Made by a program: the position numbers and the translations under genes. The notes beneath the pieces are model-generated. The model was not told where the DNA came from, ran no database searches, and saw only the letters and a list, made by a program, of their open reading frames with translations. From Candidatus Moraniibacteriota bacterium (GTDB lineage Bacteria > Patescibacteriota > Minisyncoccia > Moranbacterales > UBA1568), in contig JAGOBM010000007.1 of assembly GCA_017983435.1 (NCBI GenBank), forward strand, positions 1 to 45,366: a DNA stretch of 45,366 bases. Direction: 5' to 3'. Of this stretch, positions 9,089-36,498 are shown piece after piece (position 1 is the first letter of the stretch; each line of letters opens with the position of its first letter).

Positions 9089-9099
9089 TTTTTCTTTTC

Positions 9100-9600: not shown

Positions 9601-9649
9601 TGGCCCAGGATACGCGATTTTATGATATACTGAAAAAAAGAAAAACTCT

Positions 9650-9991: not shown

Positions 9992-10031
9992 TCGATAATA
10001 GGATCGTAAACAATAATCCGTACGGAATATT

Positions 10032-10286: not shown

Positions 10287-10311
10287 GTCCCGTTACATTT
10301 TTGTATCGTGT

Positions 10312-10344
10312 AAGACCGCCTGAGAAGGGCGGTCTTTTCTTTTC
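10312..10344 (+). terminator. Intrinsic terminator
   Basis: AAGACCGCC/GGCGGTCTT 9-bp stem with loop TGAGAAG, then a TTTTCTTTTC tail. Confidence 0.75.
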
Positions 10345-10399
10345 TGGTTTCCTCACTCTTTTTGTGGTATACTTTCCTTGTATTCATATATTTTTTTGT

Positions 10400-11151: not shown

Positions 11152-11174
11152 TAGGATGATTACTGAAGAAAGAA

Positions 11175-11200
11175 AACAGCGGCTACCCGCTGTTTTTTTT
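11175..11200 (+). terminator. Intrinsic terminator
   Basis: AACAGCGG/CCGCTGTT 8-bp stem with loop CTAC. The T8 run begins within the 3' arm. Confidence 0.8.
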
Positions 11201-11212
11201 GTTGATTTGGTA

Positions 11213-11241
11213 TTGACAAAAATGTGAAAAAACGCTACGAT
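11213..11241 (+). promoter_or_regulatory. Sigma70-like promoter (TTGACA-17-TACGAT)
   Basis: TTGACA at 11213-11218 and TACGAT at 11236-11241. Confidence 0.5.
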
Positions 11242-11247
11242 GAGGTG

Positions 11248-11441
11248 TCGTAAAATTGACAAAAAGAAGCGGGATCAGATTTCTGCCCTTAGGGTCCGAG
11301 GGAGGAACCCTCCTACCTCCCAAGGCGTAATCGAAGGGAACGCCGGTTTTCCGGAATACCCTTCGCCTTCAGGGCGGAAATCTGATCAACACTTCGTAAA
11401 CAAACACCGCTCTGACTTCAAAAGTCAGAGCGGTTTTGTTT
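11248..11441 (+). ncRNA. Candidate stand-alone structured RNA (three-way junction, possible pseudoknot), family unknown
   Basis: 17-bp closing helix 11273-11289/11371-11387 with one G-U pair. Internal hairpins AGGGT/ACCCT and AAGGC..GAAGGG..CCGG-TTTT-CCGG..CCCTTC..GCCTT. GGGAGG/CCTCCC are complementary. The terminator is 11407-11441. Confidence 0.5.
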
Positions 11442-11451
11442 GTGCCTGGTT

Positions 11452-11997
11452 TTAGAGCGGCTCGGTGATCAGTTTGGGGAGGGTTGGGAATATCTTTTGC
11501 AAGAGAGCGAGCTCGTCTGGAGAGAACGGATCGAGGACATAGTCATGGGCTGGTCGACAGACGCCTTCGGTCTCAGTCGGTCGGCCGATACCGAGCCGGA
11601 TGCGGAAGAAATCCTGGGTGCCGAGCATATCGATGATATCCTGTACGCCGTTGTGGCCGGCCGCTCGGGAAGAGAGGGTCGTTTTGTGTGTGCCTGGAGC
11701 GATATCGAGGTCGTCGTGCAGTACGATGATATCTTGGGCGGAGAGCTTGTAGAAATCGAGTAGGGCGCGGACAGTGCTGCCGGAGCGGTTCATGAAGGTA
11801 GTGGGCTTGATGAGGAGGTACTTCTCTTGGCCGATGGTACCGATGGAGAGCTCGGCGTGGAAACGGGTCTCGCGATGGAAGCTTTCGAAATCGAAATGCT
11901 CGCGGAGGAAATCAAGCGCGAGAAAGCCGGCATTGTGCCGGGTGGATGCGTATTGTTTGCCGGGATTACCGAGGCCGATGATGAGGCGCATAATCAA
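11452..11997 (-). CDS. pth: Peptidyl-tRNA hydrolase
   Basis: LIIGLGNPGKQYASTRHNAGF motif. The start may be the ATG at 11991. Confidence 0.9.
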   Translation of the reverse strand: MIMRLIIGLGNPGKQYASTRHNAGFLALDFLREHFDFESFHRETRFHAELSIGTIGQEKYLLIKPTTFMNRSGSTVRALLDFYKLSAQDIIVLHDDLDIAPGTHKTTLSSRAAGHNGVQDIIDMLGTQDFFRIRLGIGRPTETEGVCRPAHDYVLDPFSPDELALLQKIFPTLPKLITEPL

Positions 11998-12043
11998 CTG
12001 ACTTCTTTAAAAAATAGCGATGTGATTTTTTTAGAGATTCGAT

Positions 12044-12245: not shown

Positions 12246-13847
12246 CTAGTGCTTTTTGCGTTTCTTTTTCGGCTCTTGCGGTGGGAGGACTTGGGTGTCT
12301 ATCTCTTCGGGAGCCGTGCCAGTCTCTCCGAGAAAGGCGCTTTCTTCGAGATCGATACCGAGCGTGAGGATGAAATCCGAGCTCTGGGATGATGACTCCG
12401 GCAGCGTACCCGTCTCGAGCCCGATGTCGAAGCGGGAGAGGAGTGCGTTCTGACTGTAGAGCTTCGTGCCATCGGTCGTATCTCTCATGGTACTGCGTTC
12501 GGGAGCGTTTTCCAAACGACTGGTTTCGACGGTGGTTCGAGAAAAGCCGAGTTCATCCTTGAGAAAGCGCTGAAGCGAGAGAACGAGGACCGATTGTGAC
12601 GGGGTGGCGATAATGCGGATAGAAGGGGATTCGCTCTCGATCTGCTCGCGCTCTTGCTTCAGGCTGTCGAGTTCGAAGAGATGGTCCGCCGTCTGCGTGA
12701 TTTCTTTCCAGTTGCCGGTCCGAGGTACGAGGATGAAAGCATTGCCGTTCGGAGTCGGTATGTGTGAGACCCGGAGCAGACTTTCCGGTTTCCAGGCATC
12801 GATGACGACGGTCGTGATGTTTTTCGTGTCGAGGGTCCGGATGAGCGCGAGAAAGCTTTCCATCTCTTCGAGCGTCAGATCGGTCTTCACGCTTTCCCCG
12901 AGAGCATCCAGGAGGCGCGAGAGCGTGAGGATATTGAGCAGAGTGCCTGTGGAAAACACCTTGTCTCGTATAGCCTGCATGACTTGCTGCTGGCGTTTGG
13001 CGCGGCCGAAATCTCCTTCCGGATCAGCGTGCCGCTCGCGGACGTATTTGAGTGCCGTGGCCCCATCGAGCCGTTGCCATCCTTTATGGATTTCAAAAGT
13101 CTCGTAGCTGTAGTTTTTCCCCGGATAGCGCGCATCATAGAGATCGCGAGGCACATCGACTGAGACGCCACCGAGCGCATCGACGGCTTTTTCGAATCCG
13201 TCGAAATCGACGATCACCGAGTAGTGGATCGGGACTCCAGCGATAGTCTCGATCGTTTCGTGGATGAGATCGACACCTGCCTGCATGTCGAGGCCGATCT
13301 GATAGATAGCATTGATTTTCGTGTAGGTATCGCCTTGTCCGATCGGAGCATAGAGATCGCGAGGGAAGGAGAGGAGCGCGACGCGACGGGTGTGCGTATC
13401 GATGCTCGCGAGCATAATGGTATCGGTGAGATTTTTCCCGGGATAGTGCTCGCCGGCCCTGCCGAGAAGGAGGATGTTGATGCGGCCATCCGTCTCCTTG
13501 AGCGGTGCACGGTCGGAGAAAAGAGTGCCCGCAGCGCCTTTGAGCTCTGCGAAGAGCGAGATGCTTTGCTCGTTTTCGAAAGAGAGTGTCTGCCCGACGT
13601 GAGCGGCTTTGGTGATGAGAAAGAAGAGTGCTCCTGCTAGAGCGAACACGATCAGGAATACGAATGATACTGCCAGGGTTTTCCAGTGGATAGGCTGGTG
13701 AGAGTGTTTCTGTCGCGTTTGTGCTGTTTCTGACATGACGAAAGACGACTCGGCGTGCCCGAGATTGAGCGTCTGTCGGGCATGCGGGGCTGATACGCGG
13801 GGCACAGGGCTGCTCGGCGCTCTTTTTGTCGGTCTCAGACTGTCCAT
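12246..13847 (-). CDS. LCP (LytR-CpsA-Psr) family protein
   Basis: TM anchor followed by INILLLGRAG...NLTDTIMLASID...ALLSFPRDLY...KINAIY motifs. An alternative start is at 13736. Confidence 0.85.
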   Translation of the reverse strand: MDSLRPTKRAPSSPVPRVSAPHARQTLNLGHAESSFVMSETAQTRQKHSHQPIHWKTLAVSFVFLIVFALAGALFFLITKAAHVGQTLSFENEQSISLFAELKGAAGTLFSDRAPLKETDGRINILLLGRAGEHYPGKNLTDTIMLASIDTHTRRVALLSFPRDLYAPIGQGDTYTKINAIYQIGLDMQAGVDLIHETIETIAGVPIHYSVIVDFDGFEKAVDALGGVSVDVPRDLYDARYPGKNYSYETFEIHKGWQRLDGATALKYVRERHADPEGDFGRAKRQQQVMQAIRDKVFSTGTLLNILTLSRLLDALGESVKTDLTLEEMESFLALIRTLDTKNITTVVIDAWKPESLLRVSHIPTPNGNAFILVPRTGNWKEITQTADHLFELDSLKQEREQIESESPSIRIIATPSQSVLVLSLQRFLKDELGFSRTTVETSRLENAPERSTMRDTTDGTKLYSQNALLSRFDIGLETGTLPESSSQSSDFILTLGIDLEESAFLGETGTAPEEIDTQVLPPQEPKKKRKKH

Positions 13848-21097: not shown

Positions 21098-21129
21098 GAG
21101 TGTCCCTTGATCGGGACGCTCTTTTTTTT
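21098..21129 (+). terminator. Intrinsic terminator after ftsZ
   Basis: GAGTGTCCC/GGGACGCTC 9-bp stem (one G-U pair) followed by T8. Confidence 0.75.
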
Positions 21130-21286: not shown

Positions 21287-24200
21287 ATGGACGTCAAACA
21301 CAAAACAAAAGCAACGGGAGCGTCTTGGCTATGGAGGCGGTTTTTTCGTTCTCTTTGGATGAGATATGCCCACGCGCGCACGCTCTTCCTGAAGAGCCGT
21401 GCAGTAGTGCGGAAGCCGAGGCAGCGCATGATCGTCGAGGCGGATAGTCTATCGGAATTTCTCTCAGAATATTCGGTGGCGGATAGGGAGAGCTATGGTG
21501 CGGCGTATCGTCGGCGCTATTATGTGGCGCTTGCCTGTCGGTACGCCGGCCGGAAACTGGCGTGGATCGGGAAGATAGTTAGACAAGCGGGGTGGCGCGG
21601 TGCTGTGGCGACAATCGGTATCGTGCTTGCAATCTATATCGGAGGTATCGGAGTCTCGAGCGCCCCTTTTGCTCGTTCGATCAGTACGGAGATGGAGTGG
21701 AGCGGAGGAGCATCCGACAATCTCTCTCTCGAGAGTGCAACAGATGCCATACAACTGGCATCACAGGGGAGTTGGTCAGCTCGCACGTGGGCGGTGCCGC
21801 CGGATACGGTGAGTGCTGGATCGAGTTCGGTATTCGTAGGGGATGACCTTTACGTCATGCGCGGTCTGTCCGACAAGGCATTCTGGAAGTATGATTCGGT
21901 TCTCAACGAATGGATCGAGCTCGAGGATCTGCCGTTTCCGGCCTACTATGGCGCGAGTATGACGAGCAACGGGAACAGCTTAATTTACGTGATTTTCGGC
22001 GGATATTCCAAGAAATTCTATCAGTACGATACAGCGACCGGAGATTGGACGGCGTTACCGGATCTGCTCGACACGACATGGACCGGCGCGAGCATCAGTT
22101 TTGATGGCACGAACCCGTATGTCTTGCGCGGCAATGCCAGTACAGATTTTTGGCGGTACAATGTGGCACTCGGTGAATGGCAGAGTCTTGCGCCGATTTC
22201 GGCCACGGCTTCGACCGGCGCGAGTCTGGTATACGGACAGGATGGGAATTTCTATACGCCGCGCGGGGCCAACACTCTGACGTTTTATCGATACAATGTC
22301 GCGACCAATACCTGGAGTGCGCGGACAAATATCACGACCGGATATACCTTTGGTGGTAATCAGCAGGGCGCGTACGCTAATGGCTTTATCTATTACCCGC
22401 GGTCTGCTTCCACGAACAGTCTTTTGCGATATGATATTGCTGGCAATAGCTGGGCAGTGCTGGCGGCTATGCCGGCGACCGCCAATGACACGCCGATCGC
22501 GTACAACGCCAATGACAATCAGCTGTACATGCTGCGCTCCGCTGGTACGTACGACCTGTGGAAATTCGACCCGACGCTCGGTGCGACTGGTGACTGGGTC
22601 GGCCCGCAGCAGGTGATGAACAATGCCTTCGGTATGGGGACCGGAAGCGACTTGCTTTGGAATGGTGTCACTGGGGCAGGCTCGTATGTCTATGCGGTCC
22701 GCGGAGGGACAGCCGGGTTCTATCGCTACGCGACCGCGACCAATACCTGGACGGCGCTGACCAATCTGCCGCTGGTGCCGACCGCTGACACCACTGGTAC
22801 GCTGATCGGAGACTATATCTATTATCCGCTCGGCAACAACACGACGACTTTCTATCGCTATACCATATCGACCAATACCTGGGCGGCGATGACGGTGCTG
22901 CCCGGCACGGCTTCGAATGGCGGCAGTGCAGCTTACAATGCTTCAGATGGGAAAGTGTATGTCTTGCGAGGGAACGGCACGGCGAATTTCTACAGCAGTC
23001 CCAATACGACGACGCTTGCTTGGACGACTCTCTCATCCACGGTGATCAGTGGCGTGACTTACAACAGCAATATCGGAGCTCGTCTGGTTTCGGATGGGAC
23101 GGATTTGTACGCGACAGTCGGCGATGGAGAGACGGCTTTCTTGAAGTACAGCACGGCAAGCAGCACTTGGTCCCGGGTGGCTTCGACACCGTTTGCCCAG
23201 TACTACGGTACGAGTCTCACGCATACGGGTGGTAAGATCTACGCGCTGGCCGGCTACTACAAGGATGAGGCTTGGGAATATACCATCGCGACCGATACGT
23301 GGCGCCAGCTGCCTTCCAATCAGAAATACCTCTATGGCCGCGGACCGTACAACGGTGCTGCGCTGGAGTATGCGGGCGGGAGCTCTTTCTACGCGCTGAC
23401 CGGGCTCGGGACGACGGATATGTGGAGCTTCACGGCGGGCACGGGGAGTTTCGTCAGCTCGGGCACCTATGTGAGCGAGCCACTCGATCTGGCGCAGGCA
23501 TCAGATTGGGTCTCGTTGGTCGCCAATGATACCGTTCCGGCCAATACAAGCGTCGTTTATGAGACTCGTTCCAGCACTGATGCTGCTTCCTGGTCGGCTT
23601 GGGAGACGGTGAGCGGGACGACGATCGCATCGCCGGCACAGCGCTATCTGCAGGTCCGGATCACGCTGGCGACCTCAGACGGGGTTTCGACACCAACCGT
23701 GACGGACTACACAATTACTTACAATAATTCCGATACACCGCCGACCAACCCGACAGCGGTCAATGCCTATTCGCAGAATGTCGGAGGAGTGACGCTCACA
23801 TCCGGCCAATCATATCCGCATGAGCATCCGTATTTCTCGTTTTCCGGCGCCGCGAGTCCGGAAGCGGGTATCGAGGGATACTATGTGTATTTCGGGACGA
23901 ATGCGAGTGCTGATCCAGCGGCCAGTGGCTCGTTTCAGACGGCTGCGACCTATGAGGTCAATCGGGCTCTGGACACCGGTACGTACTATCTGCGTATCAA
24001 GACGAAGGATAACAACGGCAATGTCAGTGCCGCTACCTACGCTGCCTTTACCTATGTGTACAATGGTGTCTCTCCGGCGCTGGTTGAAACGAAGACGAGT
24101 CAGGCGGAGTTCGCCGCCGGCACGCTGAGTGACCTCTCGTCTTCCGCCGTGCCGGATTCCTTGCGTCTCGCGCCGGTCAGCGGGACTGGATTCTGGAATC

Positions 24201-27200
24201 AGAGCCGATTGACCAATATGCTGGCGGCGGTCTCTTCTGGTGGCGACTCGGTCCGTGTGAATTACAGCGGCAATGAATATATCTACGCGTTGCGTGGTGC
24301 CGGCACGACCGGGTTTTATCGCTACGAGCTGGCGACGGATACCTGGACGGCTTTGGCAGTGACGCTCGGAACGGTGGGCTCGGGCGGATCGATTATTGCT
24401 GGGCCCAACGGAACGCTCTATGCGACGCAGGGCAACAACCTGCCGACTTTCTGGAAATATGATATCGCGACCAATATCTGGACAGCGGTCTCGAGCGCGC
24501 CGAAGAATTTCAATATCGGAGGATCGCTTTCCTATGACGGATCGCGCTATATCTACGGGCTTCCAGGGAGCGATGACGCCTTCTATCAGTACGATACGAC
24601 CAATAATCTTTGGACCGCCAAGGCCAACGCACAGTTCGGTAATCCGAACACGGTGGACGGACAGACGGTGAATTACGGATCCGACAGTGCCTATGACGGG
24701 CGCAACAATATCTATGTGCTGCAGGGGAATTATTACCCGTATCTCGCTCGGTATTCGATCGCGACCGATGCTGAGTATGGCGAGACGGCCAATACCTGGA
24801 CCGTGCTTTCTTCGGCACCGACCGGCATCTATACCGGCGGGAGTATCGCCTATGACGCGACGACCGAGAGTCTCTATGTGACGCGCGGCAACTGGAAGAA
24901 CAACTACTATCGGTACGTCATCGGCACGGATACGTGGTCTCAATTGCCCGATACGCCAGCCGGTTTTGATCAGGGTGCGACGCAGACGGTCTACGACGGA
25001 TATATCTATGCTCTGCGCGGAGCCAATACGGCAAATTTCTACCGGTACAATATCAGCGAGAGCTCGTGGGAGATTCCGGCCAAGGGACTGTTCGGACCGT
25101 CTATCCCGGGAGGGACTTCATATTTCCCCTTCTACTACGGCACCGCGACGACGAGCGATGGTGATGGGAATATCTACCTGATGCGCGGATATTATGACAA
25201 TGTGTTTGTGAAGTACAACGTCGCTACCGGTACGACGACTGAGATGGCTCGGCTGCCGGTCGGAGCCTATGACGGAGCCACGCTCAGCTATGCGGTCGAT
25301 CGCGATGAGATCTACTATTCTCCGGGGACGATCCGTACGACGCGGAGCGGTGCTGGGAATTATTTCTACAAATACGATGTCGCGACCAATACCTGGACCG
25401 AAATCACGACCGATAGGCCGCCGCTTCAGGTGGGGGCTGGATCGAGTATGACCTATGATGGCTCCCGCTATCTTTATCTCACCCGTGGCGCTGGAACGAC
25501 GACCTGGTGGCGTTATGATCTCGATGGCACCAACGGATCCCGCTGGTCGGCCCTGACAGTCAATGCATCGCTTGCGACGACAACCGGCGGGAGTATCGTC
25601 GCTTCGACGGGCTTCGTCTATGCGGTGCGCGGAGGGAACAACGCAATCTATCGCTACGATACAACCGGCGGCACCTGGTCGACTCTGCCGGTGATGCCAG
25701 CGACGATCACGACCGGTGGTAGCATGGTCGATGGTCAGGACGGATATCTCTATGTTGTGCGGGGCGGCAATACGTCGAGCAAGTATCGGTACCGCATCGC
25801 TGACGGTTTGTCGGGTACCTGGGAGAATGTGACGAATATTCCGGCTCAGGTGAATATCGGCGGTTTCATGCAGCAGGAAAAGGAGCGGAACTGGGTGATT
25901 GCCGGCAATGGTACCAACTCCTATCCGGACGGTCTGTACAGCTACGTGGTCAGCTCGGCTGCCAACGGAACCGGATTCAAGAAAGTCGGTACCTATACAT
26001 CCGAAGCGCTGGATCTCATCTCGGTCTATCGGTGGGGCAGTCTATCAGTCAACTTCACCCAGCCGGACCATACTTTTGTCTCGTTTGAGACGAGGGCTTC
26101 ATCTGATGGAGTGGATTGGTCGGCATGGGTCGCGGTTTCCAACGAGCAGATCTTCGGGACAGAACATGTCTACAAGATCAACTCATCGCCAGCGGGATAT
26201 ATGCAGGTGCGGGCGACGCTCACTTCATCGGATCAGATCTTCTCGCCGGCCATCGAAGACTACACGGTTAGCTATTATCAGGATATCGCAGCTCCGACCA
26301 ATCCGAGTGCGATCGGCGCCTACACCTCATCGGCGAAGACAACCTCGCTCACGACCGATACCTGGTACAATCATACGGGACCGTATTTCGAATGGCCGGC
26401 TGCCGAGACGGTCGGAGGGGCTTCGGATGGAACCGGCGGATCGGGTGTGGCGGGGTATTACGTGTATTTTGGGACGGATGTGAACGCGGATCCGGTCGCA
26501 TTTCAATCGGGTCATACGTATCAAGCAGGCAGTCTCTCGGCCGGACAGACATACTATCTCAAGATCTCGACCGAAGATCAGGCTGGTATGATATCGGCCG
26601 GCGCGTATGCGGCGTTTACCTACAAGTTCGACAATATCGCTCCGACCAATCCTTCGACGATCGGAGTGACACCGACGGGATATACCGCCATCGACAACTA
26701 CGCCTTCGTCTGGTCGCCCGATGCAGCTGATGCTTTTTCGGGTATCTCCAAGCTGCAGTACCGGACCGATGGTGATGTGCCGGATACCTGGGTCGATATT
26801 ACGAATGTGAGCCAGGTGTCGCTCTCGATTCCGAATGTCGATCATATCGTCGGAGCGTACCAGTCGGGGAAAAACAAATTCTATCTGCGCGTCGTGGACG
26901 GAGCTGGCAATGCTTCCGGAGCGATGATGCAGGAGTACTACTACAGTGCCAGCGCGCCGACACCGCCGCAGAATCTCGCGGTCACGCCGCTTACCTCGAC
27001 GGTCAACTCCTTTGCCTTCTCCTGGGATACTCCGGCTTCATTCGCCGGAGACGAAGCGGGTATCGTCTATCACTATTCGATCAATGTGCTGCCGACTGCC
27101 AATAATTCTGTGGCGACATCGGTGAAGGCGGCCGGACCGAGCGCTTTTGCGACGCAGAAGGGTGAAAACCTCTTCTTCGTGGTCGCTGAGGACGAAGCGG

Positions 27201-28783
27201 GGAATATCGAGTACGGCAATTACGCGGTGGCATCATTTACGGCTGACACGAGCAATCCGCCGATTCCGGGCAGTGTCCAGATCTTTGATACCTCGGACCG
27301 GGAGAATTCCAAGTACGGTATCGCGGTGAAGTGGGCTCGACCGGACGGTATCGACCAGGCGAACTTCGACGGTTTCGTCATCTACCGCTCGGAGGACAAC
27401 GTGACGTTTACCGAAATCGCCAAGACAACCGGTAGCGCCTATGTGGACTCTGGCGAGATCCTCCTGCCATCGGGCGACACGACGCTTGAGAGTAAGCTGT
27501 ACTATTACTACGTGAAATCGAAGGACAAGACGAGCAATTACTCGGCCGCTTCCTCGACCGTCTCTATCGTTCCGACCGGAAAATATACGACGGCTCCGAA
27601 GCTGGTCGGTACGCCGAGCTTCACGACGCAGTCGTATCAGGCGACGTTTCAGTGGGCGACGGATCGTGTGGCGAGCTCATTCATCGAGTACGGGAAATCC
27701 ATCTCGCTCGGCGAGACGACCGGCCAGGTCGATTCGGTGACCTCGCACGAGGTGCTGACCAAAGGATTGGCCGCCGGCACGAAGTATTTCTATCGGGTGA
27801 AATATATCGATCCGGACGGCAATATCGGGACATCGGAAGTAGATACGTTCACGACTCTGCCGCCGCCGGTGATTTCTGAGGTGACCGTGACCGATATCCA
27901 GCTTCATACCGCCTATGTGAACTGGGAGACCAACGTGAGCGCGACCTGTACCCTGAAATATGGCTCGTACACGATCGAGGAAGAGACGGGTGGATCAGGA
28001 CACGTGCAGCGTATCGATCAGCTGGAGCCAGCGTCGGATTATCGGGTGCAGATCGAATGTGTCGACGGCGATCTAAATGAGTTCTCATCGGATGAATATT
28101 CGTTCAGCACGCCGGAAGAGCCGGTTGTCTCGGAAGTGACTATCGAGAACAAGGAAAATGTCGATCTTCCGACTATCGCAATCGCTTATCAGACCAATGT
28201 CGCGACCTCGACTCTGATATACTACAAGTCAGCGAGCGGTACCAATCACACGTACCTGACGGAGGAGCGGGTAACCGAGCATCATGCCGAGATATCTGAT
28301 CTCGATCCGGCGGTGGAATACGCGATCACGGTAACGGGCATGGATCAGTATAATATCCAGGCGACGCCGTTTGAGCAGCGGATTACGACCCGTACCGATT
28401 CGCGTCCGCCGAAGATTCTAGCCAACAAGGCGATGGGCCGGGTATCGGGCCGAGGGACCAATGCGCAGGCCAATGTCTATATCAAGATCGAGACCGATGA
28501 GCCGTCGCGCATCCATGTCGCCTATGCCAAGGGTATCGTGACGCGTTCGTTTGAGCAGTCGACGAGCGACGATTCGCTGAATACCTATCATCTGATTACG
28601 ATTCCCGCGGAAGCCGGTGATGTCTATAGCTATCAGGTGGAGGCGTATGATGAAGCCAACAACAAGACCGTGACGGATGCGGCGACGGTGCCGGTCGAGC
28701 AGTCCAAGGCCAATGCGACCGAAGTGATTACGCGGACTTTCCTCAACAATTTTGGATGGATCGCAAGTCTGGGAGGCAATTAG
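21287..28783 (+). CDS. Giant membrane-anchored surface protein: 24 Kelch-like beta-propeller blades, 2 beta-sandwich modules and about 9 FN3-like domains
   Basis: The frame is open over 21209-28783 (2524 codons). The first in-frame ATG is at 21287, with other candidates at 21359 and 21428. The single TM helix GAVATIGIVLAIYIGGIGV lies at nt 21599-21658. The Y-x-x-R/G-G...F/W-x-Y...W-x-x-L repeat recurs every 44-58 aa. Confidence 0.85.
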   Translation: MDVKHKTKATGASWLWRRFFRSLWMRYAHARTLFLKSRAVVRKPRQRMIVEADSLSEFLSEYSVADRESYGAAYRRRYYVALACRYAGRKLAWIGKIVRQAGWRGAVATIGIVLAIYIGGIGVSSAPFARSISTEMEWSGGASDNLSLESATDAIQLASQGSWSARTWAVPPDTVSAGSSSVFVGDDLYVMRGLSDKAFWKYDSVLNEWIELEDLPFPAYYGASMTSNGNSLIYVIFGGYSKKFYQYDTATGDWTALPDLLDTTWTGASISFDGTNPYVLRGNASTDFWRYNVALGEWQSLAPISATASTGASLVYGQDGNFYTPRGANTLTFYRYNVATNTWSARTNITTGYTFGGNQQGAYANGFIYYPRSASTNSLLRYDIAGNSWAVLAAMPATANDTPIAYNANDNQLYMLRSAGTYDLWKFDPTLGATGDWVGPQQVMNNAFGMGTGSDLLWNGVTGAGSYVYAVRGGTAGFYRYATATNTWTALTNLPLVPTADTTGTLIGDYIYYPLGNNTTTFYRYTISTNTWAAMTVLPGTASNGGSAAYNASDGKVYVLRGNGTANFYSSPNTTTLAWTTLSSTVISGVTYNSNIGARLVSDGTDLYATVGDGETAFLKYSTASSTWSRVASTPFAQYYGTSLTHTGGKIYALAGYYKDEAWEYTIATDTWRQLPSNQKYLYGRGPYNGAALEYAGGSSFYALTGLGTTDMWSFTAGTGSFVSSGTYVSEPLDLAQASDWVSLVANDTVPANTSVVYETRSSTDAASWSAWETVSGTTIASPAQRYLQVRITLATSDGVSTPTVTDYTITYNNSDTPPTNPTAVNAYSQNVGGVTLTSGQSYPHEHPYFSFSGAASPEAGIEGYYVYFGTNASADPAASGSFQTAATYEVNRALDTGTYYLRIKTKDNNGNVSAATYAAFTYVYNGVSPALVETKTSQAEFAAGTLSDLSSSAVPDSLRLAPVSGTGFWNQSRLTNMLAAVSSGGDSVRVNYSGNEYIYALRGAGTTGFYRYELATDTWTALAVTLGTVGSGGSIIAGPNGTLYATQGNNLPTFWKYDIATNIWTAVSSAPKNFNIGGSLSYDGSRYIYGLPGSDDAFYQYDTTNNLWTAKANAQFGNPNTVDGQTVNYGSDSAYDGRNNIYVLQGNYYPYLARYSIATDAEYGETANTWTVLSSAPTGIYTGGSIAYDATTESLYVTRGNWKNNYYRYVIGTDTWSQLPDTPAGFDQGATQTVYDGYIYALRGANTANFYRYNISESSWEIPAKGLFGPSIPGGTSYFPFYYGTATTSDGDGNIYLMRGYYDNVFVKYNVATGTTTEMARLPVGAYDGATLSYAVDRDEIYYSPGTIRTTRSGAGNYFYKYDVATNTWTEITTDRPPLQVGAGSSMTYDGSRYLYLTRGAGTTTWWRYDLDGTNGSRWSALTVNASLATTTGGSIVASTGFVYAVRGGNNAIYRYDTTGGTWSTLPVMPATITTGGSMVDGQDGYLYVVRGGNTSSKYRYRIADGLSGTWENVTNIPAQVNIGGFMQQEKERNWVIAGNGTNSYPDGLYSYVVSSAANGTGFKKVGTYTSEALDLISVYRWGSLSVNFTQPDHTFVSFETRASSDGVDWSAWVAVSNEQIFGTEHVYKINSSPAGYMQVRATLTSSDQIFSPAIEDYTVSYYQDIAAPTNPSAIGAYTSSAKTTSLTTDTWYNHTGPYFEWPAAETVGGASDGTGGSGVAGYYVYFGTDVNADPVAFQSGHTYQAGSLSAGQTYYLKISTEDQAGMISAGAYAAFTYKFDNIAPTNPSTIGVTPTGYTAIDNYAFVWSPDAADAFSGISKLQYRTDGDVPDTWVDITNVSQVSLSIPNVDHIVGAYQSGKNKFYLRVVDGAGNASGAMMQEYYYSASAPTPPQNLAVTPLTSTVNSFAFSWDTPASFAGDEAGIVYHYSINVLPTANNSVATSVKAAGPSAFATQKGENLFFVVAEDEAGNIEYGNYAVASFTADTSNPPIPGSVQIFDTSDRENSKYGIAVKWARPDGIDQANFDGFVIYRSEDNVTFTEIAKTTGSAYVDSGEILLPSGDTTLESKLYYYYVKSKDKTSNYSAASSTVSIVPTGKYTTAPKLVGTPSFTTQSYQATFQWATDRVASSFIEYGKSISLGETTGQVDSVTSHEVLTKGLAAGTKYFYRVKYIDPDGNIGTSEVDTFTTLPPPVISEVTVTDIQLHTAYVNWETNVSATCTLKYGSYTIEEETGGSGHVQRIDQLEPASDYRVQIECVDGDLNEFSSDEYSFSTPEEPVVSEVTIENKENVDLPTIAIAYQTNVATSTLIYYKSASGTNHTYLTEERVTEHHAEISDLDPAVEYAITVTGMDQYNIQATPFEQRITTRTDSRPPKILANKAMGRVSGRGTNAQANVYIKIETDEPSRIHVAYAKGIVTRSFEQSTSDDSLNTYHLITIPAEAGDVYSYQVEAYDEANNKTVTDAATVPVEQSKANATEVITRTFLNNFGWIASLGGN

Positions 28784-28806
28784 ACATACGCAATGAGAGA
28801 TTCTAT

Positions 28807-29568
28807 ATGACCGAAGAGAACGAAGTCGTTATCAGAGTCGTCGGACTCAAGAAGAGCTTTCATGTCGGTACCCAGAATATCCCGGTGCTGCACGGCATCG
28901 ACCTCGAGGTCCACAAGGGCGAGTTTGTCCTGCTCGTCGGACCGTCCGGCTGTGGCAAATCGACGCTCTTGCACACGATATACGGTCTGGAAAACCCGAC
29001 TGAGGGGACGGTATATATTGAGGAAGACGACATCTGGGAGAAGACCAAAGATTGGCGGGCGAATTTCAGGAACCGGCATATCGGCTTCATTCCGCAGCAG
29101 CCGTTTTGGATCAAATCGCTTACGGTGATTGAGAATATCGCCATACCCGGAGTCATCGGCGGAAAGACTTTTGGCGAGAGCATCCCTCTGGCGGCCAAGC
29201 TGATCGAGCTGGTCGGTATGGGCGAGTGGGCCAATCATCGTCCGTACGACCTGTCCGGAGGCCAGCAGCAGCGTATCGCGCTCGCTCGCTCGCTCCTGCT
29301 CAATCCGAAGTTCATCATCGCCGACGAGCCGACCGGCAATCTCGATATCAAGGCGGGCGAGACGCTCATGACGCTGCTCCGTAATATCTCCCAGCAGTTC
29401 GGTATCACGATCATGATGGTGACGCACAATATCGATCAGTACAAATTCGGCTCGCGTATCGTCAATATGGTGGATGGGAGAGTGACCTCGGATACTATCA
29501 ATCAGCATTCCATCGAGATGATGGAGCAGGATGTCACGGATCTCAAGCAAAAAACGGAAACCGTATGA
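28807..29568 (+). CDS. ABC transporter ATP-binding protein (MacB/LolD-type)
   Basis: Walker A GPSGCGKST, signature LSGGQQQRIALARS, Walker B IIADEPTGNLD. It starts 23 nt after the giant gene's stop. Confidence 0.9.
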   Translation: MTEENEVVIRVVGLKKSFHVGTQNIPVLHGIDLEVHKGEFVLLVGPSGCGKSTLLHTIYGLENPTEGTVYIEEDDIWEKTKDWRANFRNRHIGFIPQQPFWIKSLTVIENIAIPGVIGGKTFGESIPLAAKLIELVGMGEWANHRPYDLSGGQQQRIALARSLLLNPKFIIADEPTGNLDIKAGETLMTLLRNISQQFGITIMMVTHNIDQYKFGSRIVNMVDGRVTSDTINQHSIEMMEQDVTDLKQKTETV

Positions 29569-30878
29569 GTTTTCTCAAGAAAAATCAGAAACCGAAGACA
29601 GCGGCGGAAGAGCGGCATGCGGCCGATTTCCGGTTTTCCCATATGCGGCTTTCCACGATACTCTTCATCGGGTATCGAAATATGTTCTCGAATCGGATGC
29701 GTTCGGTACTGACGATCGGCGGTGTCGCCATCGGTATCGGCATCATCACGCTTCTGATTTCGCTCGGTTTCGGCGTGCAGGGAATGGTGATTCGCGAAGT
29801 GACCAAGAACAATCCGAGCGATATCATCGATATCAGCAACAAAAGCCTCGAGAGCTTCGCCTTGCTCGATACGCAGACGATCGAGCGTATCCGGAAGATC
29901 GAAGGCATCGAACAGATCGAAATCCGGGCGAGCATCGGCGGTAAGTTTTTCAACGGCGATGCCCAGACGGATGTCGTCATCAACGCGATTAGTCGCCACT
30001 ATCTCGATCTGGCGCGCTCGGACCTCGATGCTGGTATCCGGGAGAAGATATTCCTGGAGCCGCGTTCCATCCTGATCACCCCCAAGCTGGCGGTATTGCT
30101 CGGTTTTGATAACCCGGATGACAGTATCGGCAAGACGATAGAGTATACCGGAGTCGTCACTGGGGATATGCTGGCAGATGTGGAGGAGTCTCCTGCGCGG
30201 TCAGAGGAAGAAATCGCTGCCGAGAATAAACTGACCATAGTCGGTGTTGTCAGGGATCAAGCGAAGGATGAAGCGGTATATGCGTTCATGCCGATCGACG
30301 AAGTCCGGAAACGCTACGGCAAGGTTGCGGGGCAGTTCGCCAAGGCGCGTGTCAAAGACGAGCTCTCGATCGAGCCGGCGCGCCTGCAGATTGAGCAGAC
30401 GGCTTTCGTGACGGAGAGCGTCATCGATACGATTGCTGATATCAACTCGTTCTTCTCAATCGTCCGGGCTATCCTGGTGGTTTTCGGTGTCATCATTATG
30501 TCGATTTCGGCGATGGGCATGCTCAATACCTTGAGTATCTCTCTTCTGCAGCGGACCAAGGAAGTCGGTATCCTCAAGGCGCTCGGCACCAAACGGACCG
30601 ATATCTTCAAGATGTTCATCTTTGAGGCGTTCCTGATCAGCTTTTTCGGCGGCGTGCTCGGGCTTCTGTTCGGCTACGGATCAGCCAAGGGAATCAACTA
30701 CGGCATCAATCTCATGGCATCGAAATACGGCGTGGCCGCCTCGAGTTTCGTGGAGATCCCCTCGATGTTCGTGGTACTGATCGCGGTGTTCATCTTTTTC
30801 CTTGGTCTGCTCACCGGTATTTTTCCGGCAGTCCGGGCCTCCAAGATCCATGCACTCGAAGCGCTGCGGTACGAATAA
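29565..30878 (+). CDS. ABC transporter permease, FtsX/MacB-type, with a large extracytoplasmic domain
   Basis: 437 aa. TM1 is followed by an external domain of about 230 aa, then three C-terminal TM helices in the FtsX-type arrangement. ATGA overlap with the ATPase gene. Confidence 0.88.
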   Translation: MSFLKKNQKPKTAAEERHAADFRFSHMRLSTILFIGYRNMFSNRMRSVLTIGGVAIGIGIITLLISLGFGVQGMVIREVTKNNPSDIIDISNKSLESFALLDTQTIERIRKIEGIEQIEIRASIGGKFFNGDAQTDVVINAISRHYLDLARSDLDAGIREKIFLEPRSILITPKLAVLLGFDNPDDSIGKTIEYTGVVTGDMLADVEESPARSEEEIAAENKLTIVGVVRDQAKDEAVYAFMPIDEVRKRYGKVAGQFAKARVKDELSIEPARLQIEQTAFVTESVIDTIADINSFFSIVRAILVVFGVIIMSISAMGMLNTLSISLLQRTKEVGILKALGTKRTDIFKMFIFEAFLISFFGGVLGLLFGYGSAKGINYGINLMASKYGVAASSFVEIPSMFVVLIAVFIFFLGLLTGIFPAVRASKIHALEALRYE

Positions 30879-30938: not shown

Positions 30939-30966
30939 TTGACACTCTATTTTGGCAGTCTATAAT
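30939..30966 (+). promoter_or_regulatory. Consensus sigma70-like promoter of groEL (TTGACA-16-TATAAT)
   Basis: TTGACA at 30939-30944 and TATAAT at 30961-30966. Confidence 0.6.
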
Positions 30967-30978
30967 AGAGAGTGCTAA
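30952..30978 (+). promoter_or_regulatory. CIRCE-like operator (putative HrcA site) overlapping the -10 box
   Basis: TTGGCAGTC-N9-GAGTGCTAA against the consensus TTAGCACTC-N9-GAGTGCTAA. The left half matches 7/9 and the right half 9/9. Confidence 0.55.
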
Positions 30979-31050
30979 TTAAATTGTTAAATAGTTACAA
31001 TTGTTTTGCATTGCTGTTTTTTGGAACGATAAGGCAATAAAACAATTTAG

Positions 31051-32886: not shown

Positions 32887-33342
32887 ATGTTTTGTCCCTA
32901 TTGCCGTCATACGGATACGAAAGTCGTGGATTCCCGCCTGACGCAGGAGGGTCGTTCGGTGCGCCGCCGCCGGGAATGTGAGAAGTGTCAGGCGCGCTTC
33001 AGTACCTATGAGGAGCCGGATTTTTATCGGGTGACGGTCATCAAGAAGGATGGACATCGCGAGCTTTTCGACCGGGCGAAGCTGCGTGTCGGTCTGGAGC
33101 GCGCGTTTGAGAAGCGGCCGCAAGCGGATGAGAAGGTGGCGCATGTGCTCAGGGACATCGAGCGATTGATCCGTGAGCGCGGCCTTAAGGATATCGCGAG
33201 CCGGGAAATCGGCCGCCTAGTCATGGAGCAGCTCCGCGGTGTCGATGAGGTGGCGTTTATCCGTTTTGTGAGCGTCTACAAGTCTTTCGGGAGCGCGCAG
33301 AGTTTCCGTAAGGCGATTGAGAGTCTCGATGACGAGGCATGA
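32887..33342 (+). CDS. nrdR: Transcriptional repressor NrdR
   Basis: Zinc ribbon MFCPYCRH...CEKC followed by an ATP-cone. Confidence 0.92.
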   Translation: MFCPYCRHTDTKVVDSRLTQEGRSVRRRRECEKCQARFSTYEEPDFYRVTVIKKDGHRELFDRAKLRVGLERAFEKRPQADEKVAHVLRDIERLIRERGLKDIASREIGRLVMEQLRGVDEVAFIRFVSVYKSFGSAQSFRKAIESLDDEA

Positions 33343-34781
33343 AGCGCTGGCTACTTCCGATACTATCAGGCTCTTTCGTCGCCGGCGTCGCTCTTGGTTC
33401 CCTGATGACATTTCAGAGCGCGCTGGTCTTCGGATGTCTCGCGGGGGTTGTGATTGTGGCGGCTGTGGCTGCTTTTCAGAGCCGTCTGGTCGTACTCTTC
33501 CTGGTCTCCGGTGGATTGTTCATATCCGGCGTGCTCCTGGTATCAGATACCACGGAGCAGTATCAGGCTTTGTCCGGCATATCCGGAGTGAGCGGTAGCG
33601 GAACGATACGGGGTGAGATGGATCGAGGAGTCTACGATGCGCGAGTCGTAGTGGCACTCGATGATTGCGGGAGCGAGGCGTGTCCTCGTGAGTCGGTGCA
33701 GCTGCGAGTCGATCGTTTCAGCGAGTGGTCCGATGGTATGCGGGTACGTATCGGCCCGTGCGATTTCAAGCGGCCCAGACGTTTCGATCCGGAGTTCGAT
33801 TATCCGATGTATCTCGCCAAGGAGGGTATCGGATTCGTTGCGGAACGGTGTCCGATGGAGCGGATAGCGGCTGAGGATAGCTATTTCCGGACCTGGCTCT
33901 CTCGGGCGCGCGTATCGGTGGCGGAGCGTATCGCCTATCGATTGCCGGAACCGGAAGCGGGTTTGGCGAGAGGATTACTGCTCGGTGGCAGTGATGAGCT
34001 GCCTGATTCCGTGGCGGATGCTTTTCGGACGGTCGGACTGTCGCATATCGTCGCAGTATCCGGCTACAATATTTCCGTGCTGGCCGGAGGGCTTTTCCTG
34101 CTAGGCATCCTGCTCGGCTGGTATCGTAAGCAAGCCGTCTGGCTGACGCTTCTTGGCATCGTGCTGTTCGTCTGTCTCGTCGGCGCCCCAGCTTCGGCGG
34201 TACGGGCGGCGCTGATGGCGGGTATCGCTTTCTTTGCGCTCCTCGCGGCGCGTCCGGCCGATGGTCTCTCGCTTCTGTGCGTGGCTGGCGCGCTGATGCT
34301 CGCCGTCAACCCGCTCCTCCTCCGTTATGATATCGGATTCCAGCTTTCATTTGCAGCGACGTTTGCGATCCTGATCTCAGCTCCTCGTCGAGCTCAGATT
34401 CACTATCGGTCGTGGATTGTCGGGAGTGTCATGGAGATGGTCTTCATTACGTCGACGGTTCTCATTTTCGTCATACCGCTCTCGCTCTTCCATTTTGGCA
34501 CGCTCTCGCCGTACGCGCTCCTCAGCAATGTTTTGGTGTTACCCCTGGTCCCGGTCGCTTTTCTCCTGTCGTTCGCCATCGTACTCCTCGGTTGGGTGCC
34601 GGGTCTGGGTGCTGGGATTGGTTGGCTGGGCTACGGAGCGCTGCATGGAGCGCTCTTTCTTGGGGACCGATTGTCGGCTTTGCCCGGAGCGGGCATGACG
34701 TTTTCCGGGGTCGCTGCTTGGATGGTAGGATGCTGGTATCTCGGTTGGGTGCTTTTCTTCGTCTGGCGGAATAATAGGTAG
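33339..34781 (+). CDS. comEC: ComEC/Rec2-family DNA internalisation channel (membrane part only)
   Basis: A DUF4131-like N-terminus is followed by the Competence domain (GLSHIVAVSGYNISVL). The protein is polytopic. ATGA overlap with nrdR. Confidence 0.85.
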   Translation: MKRWLLPILSGSFVAGVALGSLMTFQSALVFGCLAGVVIVAAVAAFQSRLVVLFLVSGGLFISGVLLVSDTTEQYQALSGISGVSGSGTIRGEMDRGVYDARVVVALDDCGSEACPRESVQLRVDRFSEWSDGMRVRIGPCDFKRPRRFDPEFDYPMYLAKEGIGFVAERCPMERIAAEDSYFRTWLSRARVSVAERIAYRLPEPEAGLARGLLLGGSDELPDSVADAFRTVGLSHIVAVSGYNISVLAGGLFLLGILLGWYRKQAVWLTLLGIVLFVCLVGAPASAVRAALMAGIAFFALLAARPADGLSLLCVAGALMLAVNPLLLRYDIGFQLSFAATFAILISAPRRAQIHYRSWIVGSVMEMVFITSTVLIFVIPLSLFHFGTLSPYALLSNVLVLPLVPVAFLLSFAIVLLGWVPGLGAGIGWLGYGALHGALFLGDRLSALPGAGMTFSGVAAWMVGCWYLGWVLFFVWRNNR

Positions 34782-34784
34782 CTT

Positions 34785-35627
34785 ATGCGTATCCGTACTC
34801 TCGTGGTCGTCGCACTCCTCGCGCTCTCGATAGTGGCGGGAATATTTCTCTGGCTTTCGATTCGTGAGTTCGCACCGCTGCGAGTCGTTTTTCTCGATGT
34901 CGGGCAGGGCGATGCTATCCTGATTGCCGAAGGCGATACACAGGTATTGATTGATGGCGGTGCTGAGAGTCGGCAGCTGCTCGGCCAGCTTGGTCGCTTC
35001 GTGCCGTTTTGGGATCATCGGATTGAAACGGTCATCGCGACGCATCCGGATGCGGACCATATCGGCGGGCTGGCAGCAGTGATCCGGCGCTATCGGGTCG
35101 GGCATTTTCTCTCCAATGGTGCCGAGGGGCAGAGCGGTGCTGCCGCTGATCTCAAGCGGTCGCTTGAGCAGTCATCCGAGACGGATCGGGCGGTCTTGGG
35201 TACCGGGTCGAGGCTGGTATTTCCCGGAGGAGCCGAGCTCTCTGTGCTTTTTCCAGTGAGCGGAGCAGCTGCCAATTTGGAGGAGACGAATGAGGGCAGT
35301 ATCGTGGCACGCTTAGAATACGGACAAGCGAGCTTCTTGTTGACCGGAGATCTACCGCATGAAGAGGCCGTACTTCCGGATATCGAGCCGGCACAGGTGC
35401 TTAAAGTCGCGCATCATGGGTCGAAATATTCGACGAGCGATGCGTGGCTCGCGCGCGTGCAGCCCGAGGTCGCTGTTGTCTCAGTCGGCAAGAACCGCTA
35501 TGGTCATCCGGCCGATGAAGTGCTCCATCGACTCCGGGCCGTTGGAACGGAAATACTTCGGACGGATGAAGTCGGGAATATTGTGTTCGTCTGTCAGCAG
35601 AATGCCTGTGTCCGGGAGCGGAGATGA
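34785..35627 (+). CDS. MBL-fold metallo-hydrolase (ComEC C-terminal-type domain as a separate, TM-anchored protein)
   Basis: VFLDVGQGDAILI, THPDADHIGG and VAHHGSKYS motifs. It starts 3 nt after the comEC stop. Confidence 0.85.
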   Translation: MRIRTLVVVALLALSIVAGIFLWLSIREFAPLRVVFLDVGQGDAILIAEGDTQVLIDGGAESRQLLGQLGRFVPFWDHRIETVIATHPDADHIGGLAAVIRRYRVGHFLSNGAEGQSGAAADLKRSLEQSSETDRAVLGTGSRLVFPGGAELSVLFPVSGAAANLEETNEGSIVARLEYGQASFLLTGDLPHEEAVLPDIEPAQVLKVAHHGSKYSTSDAWLARVQPEVAVVSVGKNRYGHPADEVLHRLRAVGTEILRTDEVGNIVFVCQQNACVRERR

Positions 35628-35889: not shown

Positions 35890-36498
35890 ATGGCAGCACA
35901 GCACCCGAAGAAAGAGCGATCATTCGTCATTGTGAAGCCCGACGGCGTGCAGCGCGGTCTCATGGGGGAGATTCTGCGGCGCATTGAGCGGACCGGCCTC
36001 AAGGTCGTGGCTGTGAAGTTTCTCGTGCCGAAAGAGGAGCAGTGCTGGGACCACTACCATAAGGAAGATGACTGGTTTCTGTCCAAAGGCACGCGTATCA
36101 CGGCTGATCGCGAGGCGCAGGGTCTGCCAATCGAAAAGGAGCCGATTGAGTACGGCAAGGATATCATCCGTGCCAATGTGACTTTCTTCACCTCGGGTCC
36201 GGTGCTCGCGCTGGTGATCGAGGGTAATCAGTCGGTGGCTATCGTGAAGAAGCTCGTGGGCGGCACCGAGCCATCGACGTCGGATGTCGGTACGATTCGC
36301 GGCGACTACACTATCGACTCGTACGCGCTGTCTTCTATCGACAATCGTGCGGTCCGCAATCTCATCCACTGTTCCGACAAGCCGGAGGAGGCGGAGCGCG
36401 AGATCGCTATCTGGTTTACGCCAGAAGAAATCGTCGCCTATCGCTTGGTCGCTGAGCAGGTGCTCTACGATGTCAATCTGGACGGTATTCTGGAGTAG
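35890..36498 (+). CDS. ndk: Nucleoside-diphosphate kinase (long form with an internal insertion)
   Basis: ERSFVIVKPDGVQRGL, IRGDYT and NLIHCSD motifs. At 202 aa it exceeds the usual length of about 140-150 aa. Confidence 0.9.
   Translation: MAAQHPKKERSFVIVKPDGVQRGLMGEILRRIERTGLKVVAVKFLVPKEEQCWDHYHKEDDWFLSKGTRITADREAQGLPIEKEPIEYGKDIIRANVTFFTSGPVLALVIEGNQSVAIVKKLVGGTEPSTSDVGTIRGDYTIDSYALSSIDNRAVRNLIHCSDKPEEAEREIAIWFTPEEIVAYRLVAEQVLYDVNLDGILE

Follow-up and report, generated by a model that had tools for sequence, protein, structure and literature searches.

A giant Kelch/FN3 protein gene and its neighbouring MacB/YtrF-type ABC pair: a candidate anchoring or actuation module for surface proteins in CPR bacteria

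The window analysed here, 45,366 nucleotides of contig JAGOBM010000007.1 (assembly GCA_017983435.1) from a Candidatus Moraniibacteriota bacterium, carries three genes that follow one another on the plus strand: a gene for a giant protein made of Kelch and fibronectin type III (FN3) domains, a gene for an ATP-binding cassette (ABC) ATPase, and a gene for a permease with MacB_PCD and FtsX domains. An earlier note, written from the letters of this DNA, had proposed that the three form one surface module. Comparison across the Candidate Phyla Radiation (CPR, or Patescibacteria) indicates that the giant gene, or more exactly the stalk that it encodes, is very likely functionally linked to the ABC pair. 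The core of the locus reads as follows.

21287..28783, plus strand: giant surface protein gene, 2,498 aa from the ATG at 21287; an alternative ATG start lies at 21428, and the frame is open from a TTG at 21209
28784..28806, plus strand: spacer between the giant and ATPase genes, 23 nt, hairpin-free, with a GAGAG Shine-Dalgarno-like motif
28807..29568, plus strand: ABC ATPase gene, 253 aa
29565..29568, plus strand: ATPase/permease junction, ATGA, in which the ATPase stop overlaps the permease start
29565..30878, plus strand: permease gene, 437 aa, type VII ABC permease

The true start of the giant gene is uncertain because the public gene call for an identical protein (P0121) begins at Met48, nucleotide 21428, for a length of 2,451 aa.

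The three genes keep company with great regularity. A search with the permease alignment against one genome per GTDB species recovered 48 Moranbacteria-type loci, 45 of them with upstream DNA, and every one of these (45/45) has a full-length, collinear giant gene (44-83% identity; broken into pieces in one locus, L036, described below) and an ATPase gene directly upstream of the permease. A scan begun from the giant protein found relatives in 510 species; among the best 80 loci, which were taken further and come from Moranbacteria, Woese-, Shapiro-, Levy-, Collier-, Roizman- and Pacebacteria and WS6, every new locus whose sequence extends beyond the giant stop codon has the ATPase gene (72/72) and 71 of the 72 also have the permease gene. 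The gene-neighbourhood comparison that the earlier note had proposed was thereby made from both ends, and neither end turned up the pattern that the note had named as contrary to its idea, orthologues of one partner without the other. Flanking genes are completely different between the annotated example loci: ftsZ lies upstream in 0/45 of the Moranbacteria loci, the ftsA-ftsZ adjacency of the window is absent in every relative examined, and groEL lies downstream in close relatives only. A genome scan based on the stalk found both ABC genes directly downstream in 66 of 79 loci; three others end just after the ATPase gene, seven have the permease gene further downstream, and three have neither, two of the latter with less than 2.6 kb of downstream DNA. 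The permease of locus L176 is among those further downstream because a PAS/HisKA histidine kinase gene and two receiver genes (9095-12004) are inserted between the stalk gene and the ABC pair, an arrangement also seen in L177, L181, L183 and L195 and reminiscent of the two-component systems that partner type VII transporters of the BceAB type. Permeases with a large external domain (ectodomain) have relatives in more than 586 species, and at 67 informative loci a stalk gene lies directly upstream in 64 and the two adjoin in 66. In L282 the stalk gene directly follows the permease and in L247 it lies divergently upstream, both with the canonical tail described below; since the adjacency survives such rearrangement of gene order, it is strong evidence of functional coupling. 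The proposal that the three genes form one functional unit thus stands well, with near-perfect co-occurrence in both directions, across CPR classes and amid unrelated flanks. The module is distributed over Microgenomates, Dojkabacteria (WS6), WWE3 and Moranbacteria, and some contigs encode a second system beside the first, with a separate ABC pair for each (L135/L143 and L142/L144).

The junctions between the genes look like those of a co-translated operon. In relatives, the ATPase start mostly lies between -16 and +50 nt from the giant stop codon, overlaps of 4-13 nt and 1-nt gaps being common, and an overlap of 4 nt is the usual case between the ATPase and permease genes; in L017 and L103 the two are fused into one open reading frame (ORF), as in MacB proper. 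The 23-nt spacer in the window folds less than shuffled sequence (z +1.6). A look for transcripts found no RNA run that covers the locus in the window, and for L139, a relative from Rifle groundwater, no contig of the metatranscriptomes from the same study matches the locus. Between the giant and ATPase genes, one Microgenomates subclade encodes a conserved protein of about 131 aa with an N-terminal transmembrane (TM) segment and one FN3-like (Pur_ac_phosph_N-like) domain (L050 15126-15521, with equivalents in L086, L090, L094, L097, L098, L103, L106, L115, L116 and L126); it may be a fourth component of the module. Beta-lactamase-like genes also occur near the cluster: a membrane-anchored gene resembling class-A beta-lactamases or penicillin-binding proteins (PBPs), with SxxK and SDN motifs, lies between the ATPase and permease genes of L025 (8792-9841), and a Beta-lactamase2 gene follows the permease in L130 (12540-13445). 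We considered such a gene as a core part of the module and rejected it, its occurrence being sporadic (L025, L130 and some Shapirobacteria flanks), yet these neighbours do give hints of a connection to the cell wall.

The giant protein itself can be divided, from hydropathy, Pfam matches, predicted structures and comparison with relatives, into the following parts.

21593..21673, plus strand: hydrophobic segment, residues 103-129, identified by hydropathy and followed by VSS/AP; signal anchor or long cleavable signal peptide
21674..24091, plus strand: head module 1, residues ~130-935, two six-bladed Kelch propellers within a predicted split beta-sandwich, followed by an FN3-like domain
24092..25978, plus strand: propeller part of head module 2, residues ~936-1564, the predicted N-terminal strands of a second beta-sandwich and two more six-bladed Kelch propellers
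25979..28714, plus strand: conserved stalk, residues ~1565-2476, the remainder of the second beta-sandwich and a series of FN3-like domains, common to proteins with other heads
28715..28774, plus strand: predicted C-terminal amphipathic helix, residues 2477-2496 (ATEVITRTFLNNFGWIASLG), with the motif A-L-x-L-V-I...F-G-[F/W]; candidate docking or sorting signal

The part that the ABC pair accompanies is, from comparison of sequences, the C-terminal FN3 stalk of about 830 aa with its terminal helix, and not the Kelch head. When residues 1300-2498 were searched against 1.84 billion representative proteins, clustered at 50% identity, 979 clusters matched at E<=1e-30. Many proteins of these clusters (760-4,400 aa) match the last ~830 aa only, at their own C-terminus, and carry other heads on the shared stalk: an RCC1 propeller, DUF2341 plus Gly_rich_2, or LamG. 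Two such proteins were looked up directly, and the gene of each is followed by an ABC ATPase gene and a MacB_PCD/FtsX permease gene. The module is a superfamily whose heads are exchangeable, not one particular to the Kelch giant. The earlier note had taken the Kelch giant as the partner of the ABC pair; the linkage to the giant gene holds, and the restriction to Kelch does not, since proteins with RCC1, DUF2341 and LamG heads share both stalk and pair. An AlphaFold2 (AF2) model of residues 1790-2498 has seven beta-sandwich domains, with a predicted local distance difference test score (pLDDT) of 87.3 and a predicted template modelling score (pTM) of 0.41; Foldseek matches to the stalk model are FN3 and immunoglobulin (Ig) chains, including the grappling-hook protein GhpA, and give no functional lead. 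Large surface proteins of CPR bacteria have been reported as fast-evolving and without full-length homologues (PMC11809585). The giant family contrasts with this picture, being conserved end to end across classes and always with its own ABC pair: full-length collinear orthologues measure 2,277-2,675 aa, with identity down to 35-38%, and among 40 orthologues residues 150-2498 are uniformly ~50-60% identical and nearly gapless.

The stalk ends in a tail whose motif occurs once in the window, as ATEVITRTFLNNFGWIASLGGN (nt 28715-28780). An alignment of 143 unique C-termini gives the consensus ...TPK(A/S)T.(N/D)-A-L-x-(L/V/I)-V-I-x-N-L-x-x-x-F-G-[F/W]-L, in which F and the final [F/W] are present in 100%, G in 88% and the A at -12 in 95%, and the proteins end 5-12 residues past the motif. 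AF2 predicts the tail to be helical at a pLDDT of 56-71, a modest value that is to be expected if the helix packs against something outside the model. The tail is amphipathic and too weakly hydrophobic for a TM segment (mean Kyte-Doolittle hydropathy 0.5). A second, large-ectodomain system occurs in Moraniibacteriota and related genomes (L232, L240, L243, L251, L256, L260 and L265); its stalk proteins of ~2,070 aa have tails that end in ...ALDLVITSLRSILGQ, without the F-G-F motif. Because some records of this system are labelled Moraniibacteriota, that group may hold more than one type of system.

The opposite end of the protein varies. Residues 103-129 are its sole hydrophobic segment, and the first 120 residues are its least conserved part. 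The alignment shows a long basic stretch and TM segment followed by a conserved SAP in Moranbacteria, and a classical signal peptide with an AxA site in the Microgenomates clade; in most lineages the N-terminal 120 residues look like a cleavable signal peptide. Anchoring of the giant protein by its N-terminus is doubtful on account of this variability and of the classical signal peptide in the Microgenomates clade, and the idea that an N-terminal TM helix makes a conserved contact with the permease was dropped because this region is the least conserved of the protein. The earlier note had pictured an N-terminally anchored giant whose N-terminal part, close to the membrane, meets the permease; it is the C-terminal stalk and helix that travel with the pair. 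Other ways of holding the protein at the surface were also considered. The giant protein has neither an LPXTG-like motif (LP.[TSA]G) nor a lipobox, and its only three cysteines (84, 2221 and 2258) include none at a lipobox position after the hydrophobic segment; a sortase-anchored surface protein was rejected for want of an LP.[TSA]G motif and a C-terminal hydrophobic segment.

The head is predicted to consist of four six-bladed Kelch propellers in two split beta-sandwich modules. In module 1, Pfam recognises Kelch_1, Kelch_6 and others, a motif count gives 12 Kelch blades, and an AF2 model of residues 125-960 (pLDDT 88.8) supports the fold; module 2 is an internal duplication of module 1, visible both in the sequence and in the conservation profile. 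Foldseek gave no functional lead for the head, only generic tandem propellers and Kelch domains with LRP4/6, Utp21, Keap1 and NS1-BP on top, and the invariant columns of the alignment are mostly G, W, Y, D and P. An enzyme of the Kelch fold, such as galactose oxidase or the mutarotase NanM, was rejected: the NANM model scores 43.2 against a cut-off of 45 and YjhT 34.5 against 256, and there is no specific structural match. Pfam finds no hydrolase or coiled-coil domain in the giant protein.

The ATPase and the permease are a type VII ABC pair that falls, by its sequence, into the YtrEF/MacB branch and is neither FtsEX nor LolCDE. Near homologues of the permease assign the organism to Candidatus Moranbacteria (Patescibacteria). 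The earlier note had assigned the pair to the MacB or type VII kind, an assignment that Pfam (MacB_PCD and FtsX) and a profile search of PDB sequences both bear out. In the ATPase the Walker A (GPSGCGKS), signature (LSGGQ), Walker B (FIIADEP), H-loop (THN) and Q-loop motifs are all intact. It matches Pfam ABC_tran at 120.5 bits and stays below every NCBIfam equivalog cut-off, the best match being LolD at 198.5 bits under a cut-off of 307.75; the closest PDB sequences are 5xu1_A (best), LolD and MJ0796, and YtrE (9o9x_A) matches at 4.6e-41, a value that many other nucleotide-binding domains better. Hydropathy of the permease shows TM1 at residues 45-77, an ectodomain at ~78-288 and three TM segments within 289-428, which is the layout described in the earlier note save that the ectodomain measures ~210 aa and not ~230. 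Pfam places MacB_PCD at residues 47-278 (58.6 bits, cut-off 27; profile positions 1-206 of 207) and FtsX at residues 306-429 (73.6 bits, cut-off 25.5). A permease profile built from 17 orthologues and searched against all PDB sequences had Bacillus subtilis YtrF (9o9x_C) as its top match (E 5e-37, profile 29-434 against chain residues 1-435), followed by Streptococcus pneumoniae 5xu1 (E 2.8e-23), MacB (E 8e-23), LolF/LolE/LolC and YknZ, and returned no FtsX chain at E<=1e-3; the assignment to the YtrEF/MacB branch follows from YtrF standing first and FtsX chains being absent. In Microgenomates (L050, L053 and others) the permeases measure 670-850 aa and have an ectodomain insertion of ~250-400 aa with conserved pairs of cysteines, as well as a cytoplasmic N-terminal extension of ~100 aa.

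Several familiar identities for the pair were tried and rejected. FtsEX fails on scores, with the FtsX models at 23-27 bits against cut-offs of 225-255 and FtsE at 165.6 against 264.85, and also on context, the adjacency to ftsZ being confined to the window and the giant protein having no hydrolase or coiled-coil domain. LolCDE falls short in the same manner (LolD as above, lolCE 60.8 against 362.45, LolC 39.8 against 473), and there is no lipobox cysteine; MacB proper (PRK10535) scores 60.8 bits with the permease and 164.8 bits with the ATPase against a cut-off of 966. Efflux of the MacAB-TolC or YknXYZ type was set aside since no gene for a HlyD-family adaptor occurs in the unit in the window or in the Pfam-annotated loci L050-L053, L130 and L131, and a type I secretion adhesin since the permease is MacB_PCD plus FtsX and genes for a membrane-fusion protein (MFP) or outer-membrane protein (OMP) are absent. 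The earlier remark that the unit in the window has no membrane-fusion or outer-membrane partner gene is thus confirmed.

Two signals bound the unit in the window.

21098..21129, plus strand: ftsZ intrinsic terminator, a GC-rich stem of 9 bp with T8 behind it; upstream boundary of the unit
30939..30966, plus strand: groEL sigma-70 consensus promoter, TTGACA-16-TATAAT; downstream boundary of the unit

The terminator hairpin has a folding energy of -17 kcal/mol (z -4.3; 0/200 shuffles as stable) with a U-run behind it, and the promoter matches the consensus at 12/12 positions with a 16-nt spacer. These two signals, the ATGA overlap and the 23-nt hairpin-free spacer had been described in the earlier note and are all found at the positions it gave, the groEL promoter at 30939. 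No convincing intrinsic terminator lies in the 60 nt that follow the permease gene (z 0.08), and upstream of the giant gene no consensus promoter turned up. The unit stands among housekeeping genes, with thrS, an LCP-family gene, a signal peptidase gene, hisS, ybeY, ftsA and ftsZ upstream and groEL, nrdR, comEC, ndk, fusA, rplC and rplD downstream. An inverted repeat (30942-30951/30964-30973; ACACTCTATT / AATAGAGAGT) overlaps the perfect groEL promoter (window 30939-30980), and TTGACACTC-N20-GAGTGCTAA at the same promoter resembles two half-sites of CIRCE, the HrcA operator, with a spacer of 20 nt against the usual 9 nt. No groES lies directly upstream of groEL in the window; the relative L051 has groES and groEL together. 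ComEC is encoded by two ORFs 3 nt apart, one with the Competence domain (33339-34781) and one with the metallo-beta-lactamase domain (34785-35627), possibly the outcome of gene splitting or of a frameshift. The ORF for nucleoside diphosphate kinase (35890-36498; 202 aa) has an N-terminal extension, the best Pfam NDK stretch being residues 89-181. Further envelope genes lie on the minus strand (7046-9088, 4640-6115 and 12246-13847), coding for a surface protein of 680 aa with Lamin-tail and PKD domains, a DUF4012 protein and an LCP (LytR-CpsA-Psr) family protein.

Taken as a whole, the gene neighbourhood points to a system, powered by ATP, by which giant surface proteins would be held, sorted or actuated. 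ABC systems of type VII are established as mechanotransducers that act on partners outside the cytoplasm (PMC11466899). We propose that the three genes encode one envelope machine, widespread in CPR/Patescibacteria, in which the giant protein would be exported by Sec and display a variable N-terminal head on a conserved FN3-like stalk of ~830 aa. The ATPase and permease would form a dedicated type VII (MacB/YtrEF-like) ABC dimer that does not carry the giant protein across the membrane and serves as its membrane-embedded base: the permease ectodomain, or a cleft in the outer leaflet between the TM helices, would bind the end of the stalk, most likely its terminal helix, and ATP binding and hydrolysis would be transmitted outward, as in FtsEX-PcsB/EnvC. 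The giant protein could thus be held, oriented or switched, for example between an engaged and a released head on a host or glycan ligand. To this reading, in which the ABC dimer is the membrane base of a stalk protein that it holds, orients or switches by ATP, we give a probability of roughly 0.55, from conserved gene order and analogy with known systems. The sequences themselves establish the linkage of the genes and their operon-like spacing, the domain layout, the conserved stalk and tail, Sec-type export signals, the intact ATPase motifs and the type VII form of the permease. We infer the physical contact, the tail as the place where it occurs, the direction in which ATP does its work and what the head binds, and equally the mechanism that the earlier note had offered, in which the pair extracts, positions or energises the giant protein. 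A more ambitious version is tentative, and we would sooner bet against it than for it: that CPR bacteria have an ATP-powered surface-protein system in which a type VII ABC recognises the C-terminal helix (A-L-x-L-V-I...F-G-[F/W]) and anchors and mechanically actuates giants with exchangeable heads (Kelch, RCC1, LamG, DUF2341), as an energised arm for catching, holding and releasing host cells, the tail being a new kind of sorting or docking signal in monoderms.

Known systems resemble this arrangement in part. FtsEX, with its partners PcsB, EnvC, CwlO and RipC, is the model adopted here: a type VII ABC dimer that does not transport, whose ectodomain binds helices of a Sec-exported partner and passes on ATP-driven movement. 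However, the permease here is not FtsX (its NCBIfam scores are about a tenth of the cut-off), its ectodomain is of the MacB_PCD type, and the partner is a 2,500-aa binding scaffold without a hydrolase, encoded in the same operon, with no conserved link to division genes. YtrEF (PDB 9o9x/9o9y) includes the closest solved sequence relative of the permease, with a classical MacB-type fold and from a monoderm, but its ytrGABCDEF operon includes a further ABC system and lacks a giant protein, a context absent in the window; its function is listed as unknown (PMC11466899). LolCDE, also type VII, recognises an element at the end of an exported protein that is associated with the membrane and uses ATP to extract it, and LolD is the best NCBIfam match of the ATPase; here, by contrast, scores lie under the equivalog cut-offs, the giant has no lipobox or N-terminal cysteine and its candidate signal is a C-terminal helix, and the organism is a monoderm without a LolA/LolB pathway. 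MacAB-TolC, YknXYZ and Spr0693-0695 (5xu1) share the MacB_PCD plus FtsX permease, 5xu1 being the second-best PDB match for the permease and the best for the ATPase, whereas in the examined loci there is no membrane-fusion or outer-membrane component and the giant Kelch/FN3 protein stands in the adaptor's place. Type I secretion adhesins (LapA/LapBCE, RTX) likewise combine a giant modular adhesin-like protein, a conserved signal at the extreme C-terminus and an adjoining dedicated ABC system, but their ABC has the ABC_membrane (type IV) fold and works with an MFP and an outer-membrane protein, where the present module has a type VII pair and an N-terminal Sec-type signal. In overall shape, the grappling hook GhpA of Aureispira and the leg protein Gli349 of Mycoplasma mobile are also long Ig/FN3-like chains with a distal binding head, and fragments of GhpA are among the Foldseek matches of the stalk; there is, however, no sequence relation beyond the generic fold, and they are anchored and driven by other systems. 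A further likeness is that the giant leg of M. mobile is powered by an ATPase in the cytoplasm.

Several observations weigh against an ABC dimer that holds and drives the stalk protein. No catalytic or ligand site is recognisable in the head, and its Foldseek matches are generic. One permease, in L286, has no stalk gene within 10 kb (the sole such case among the 67 loci), and in L036, from a Moranbacteria genome, only three ORFs of 280, 461 and 287 aa are left of the giant gene (5974-9129; possibly a pseudogene or an assembly frameshift) beside an intact ABC pair. Tails of the FxW type pair with small-ectodomain permeases in 42/43 cases and FxF tails with large-ectodomain permeases in 81/81, a suggestive correlation, yet one confounded by the shared descent of a co-inherited cluster and for that reason weak evidence of co-evolution. 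Conserved adjacency fits a transient role in sorting or biogenesis equally well, and the main rival is a Lol-like factor that would read the F-G-[F/W] tail in the outer leaflet, extract that tail by ATP and hand the protein to the wall or S-layer, or release it, so that contact would be transient. The permease-first, giant-first and stalk scans apply to it unchanged; the tail behaves as a conserved C-terminal signal common to proteins with unrelated heads; LolCDE, whose LolD is the nearest NCBIfam relative of the ATPase, extracts membrane-embedded anchors; and because the signal peptide is of the cleavable type in most lineages, the mature giant protein needs another handling step. A general sorter, on the other hand, would be expected to serve several scattered substrates, whereas there is about one stalk gene per ABC pair (as in the doubled contigs L135/L143 and L142/L144), overlapping stop and start codons suggest stoichiometric co-production, and the tail is only moderately hydrophobic in a protein without lipobox or LPXTG. 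We consider such a factor rather unlikely, though it deserves to be taken seriously.

The pair could also pump a small molecule, such as a peptide, lipid or glycan fragment, in efflux or uptake. The giant protein would then be an accessory outside the cell that stands in for the membrane-fusion protein of MacAB or YknXYZ and catches or conducts the substrate, perhaps at the contact with a host. The sequence neighbours of the pair, 5xu1, MacB and YknZ, are efflux-type systems, the JGI annotation of homologues is 'antimicrobial peptide transport system permease', one lineage has the histidine kinase and receivers inside the cluster, as with BceAB-type pumps, and CPR bacteria depend on their hosts for lipids and other building blocks. 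However, no protein of the MFP-like coiled-coil or lipoyl/barrel kind is encoded in the cluster, no conduit or hydrophobic groove is obvious in Kelch propellers and FN3 chains, and exchangeable heads on a fixed stalk suit a displayed binding module better than a substrate channel, all of which makes a pump improbable. More improbable still is an analogue of FtsEX tied to the divisome, in which the pair would regulate wall remodelling at division and the giant protein would be its septal wall-binding partner. The position directly after ftsA-ftsZ in the window would fit, as would the PBP- or beta-lactamase-like genes inserted in the cluster of L025 and following that of L130, and the title of PMC8060467 links YtrEF, the closest solved relative, to cell-wall thickness; the adjacency to ftsZ is nevertheless private to the window among the relatives examined, the FtsX and FtsE scores and the PDB search speak against it, and the giant protein lacks the hydrolase or coiled-coil domain of such a partner. 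A coincidental adjacency of two unrelated functions is effectively refuted: several hundred species-level genomes from different CPR classes share the arrangement although their flanking genes are unrelated, and it persists through rearrangements, which chance would hardly explain.

The ingredients of the module are known singly, type VII ABC systems with partner proteins on the one side and giant FN3 adhesin-like proteins on the other. In the literature on Moranbacteria, Patescibacteria and CPR surface proteins we found no description of a stalk-protein/ABC module, in agreement with the earlier note, which knew of no system of such composition; the combination of a fixed stalk, a C-terminal F-G-[F/W] helix and a private MacB/YtrF-type ABC pair thus appears to be undescribed in the literature searched, and the module could be a new system for anchoring or actuating surface proteins. 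CPR/Patescibacteria account for much of bacterial diversity, and their way of life is one of attachment to other cells. To our knowledge, little beyond type IV pili has been described of the means by which they attach, sense and detach. Should the ABC pair anchor or drive the giant protein, the idea of mechanotransmission developed for FtsEX, LolCDE and MacB would extend to giant adhesin-like proteins, a new C-terminal signal would be defined, and there would be a testable handle on host interaction in uncultured lineages. The module could also hint at the function of YtrEF-type transporters in Firmicutes.

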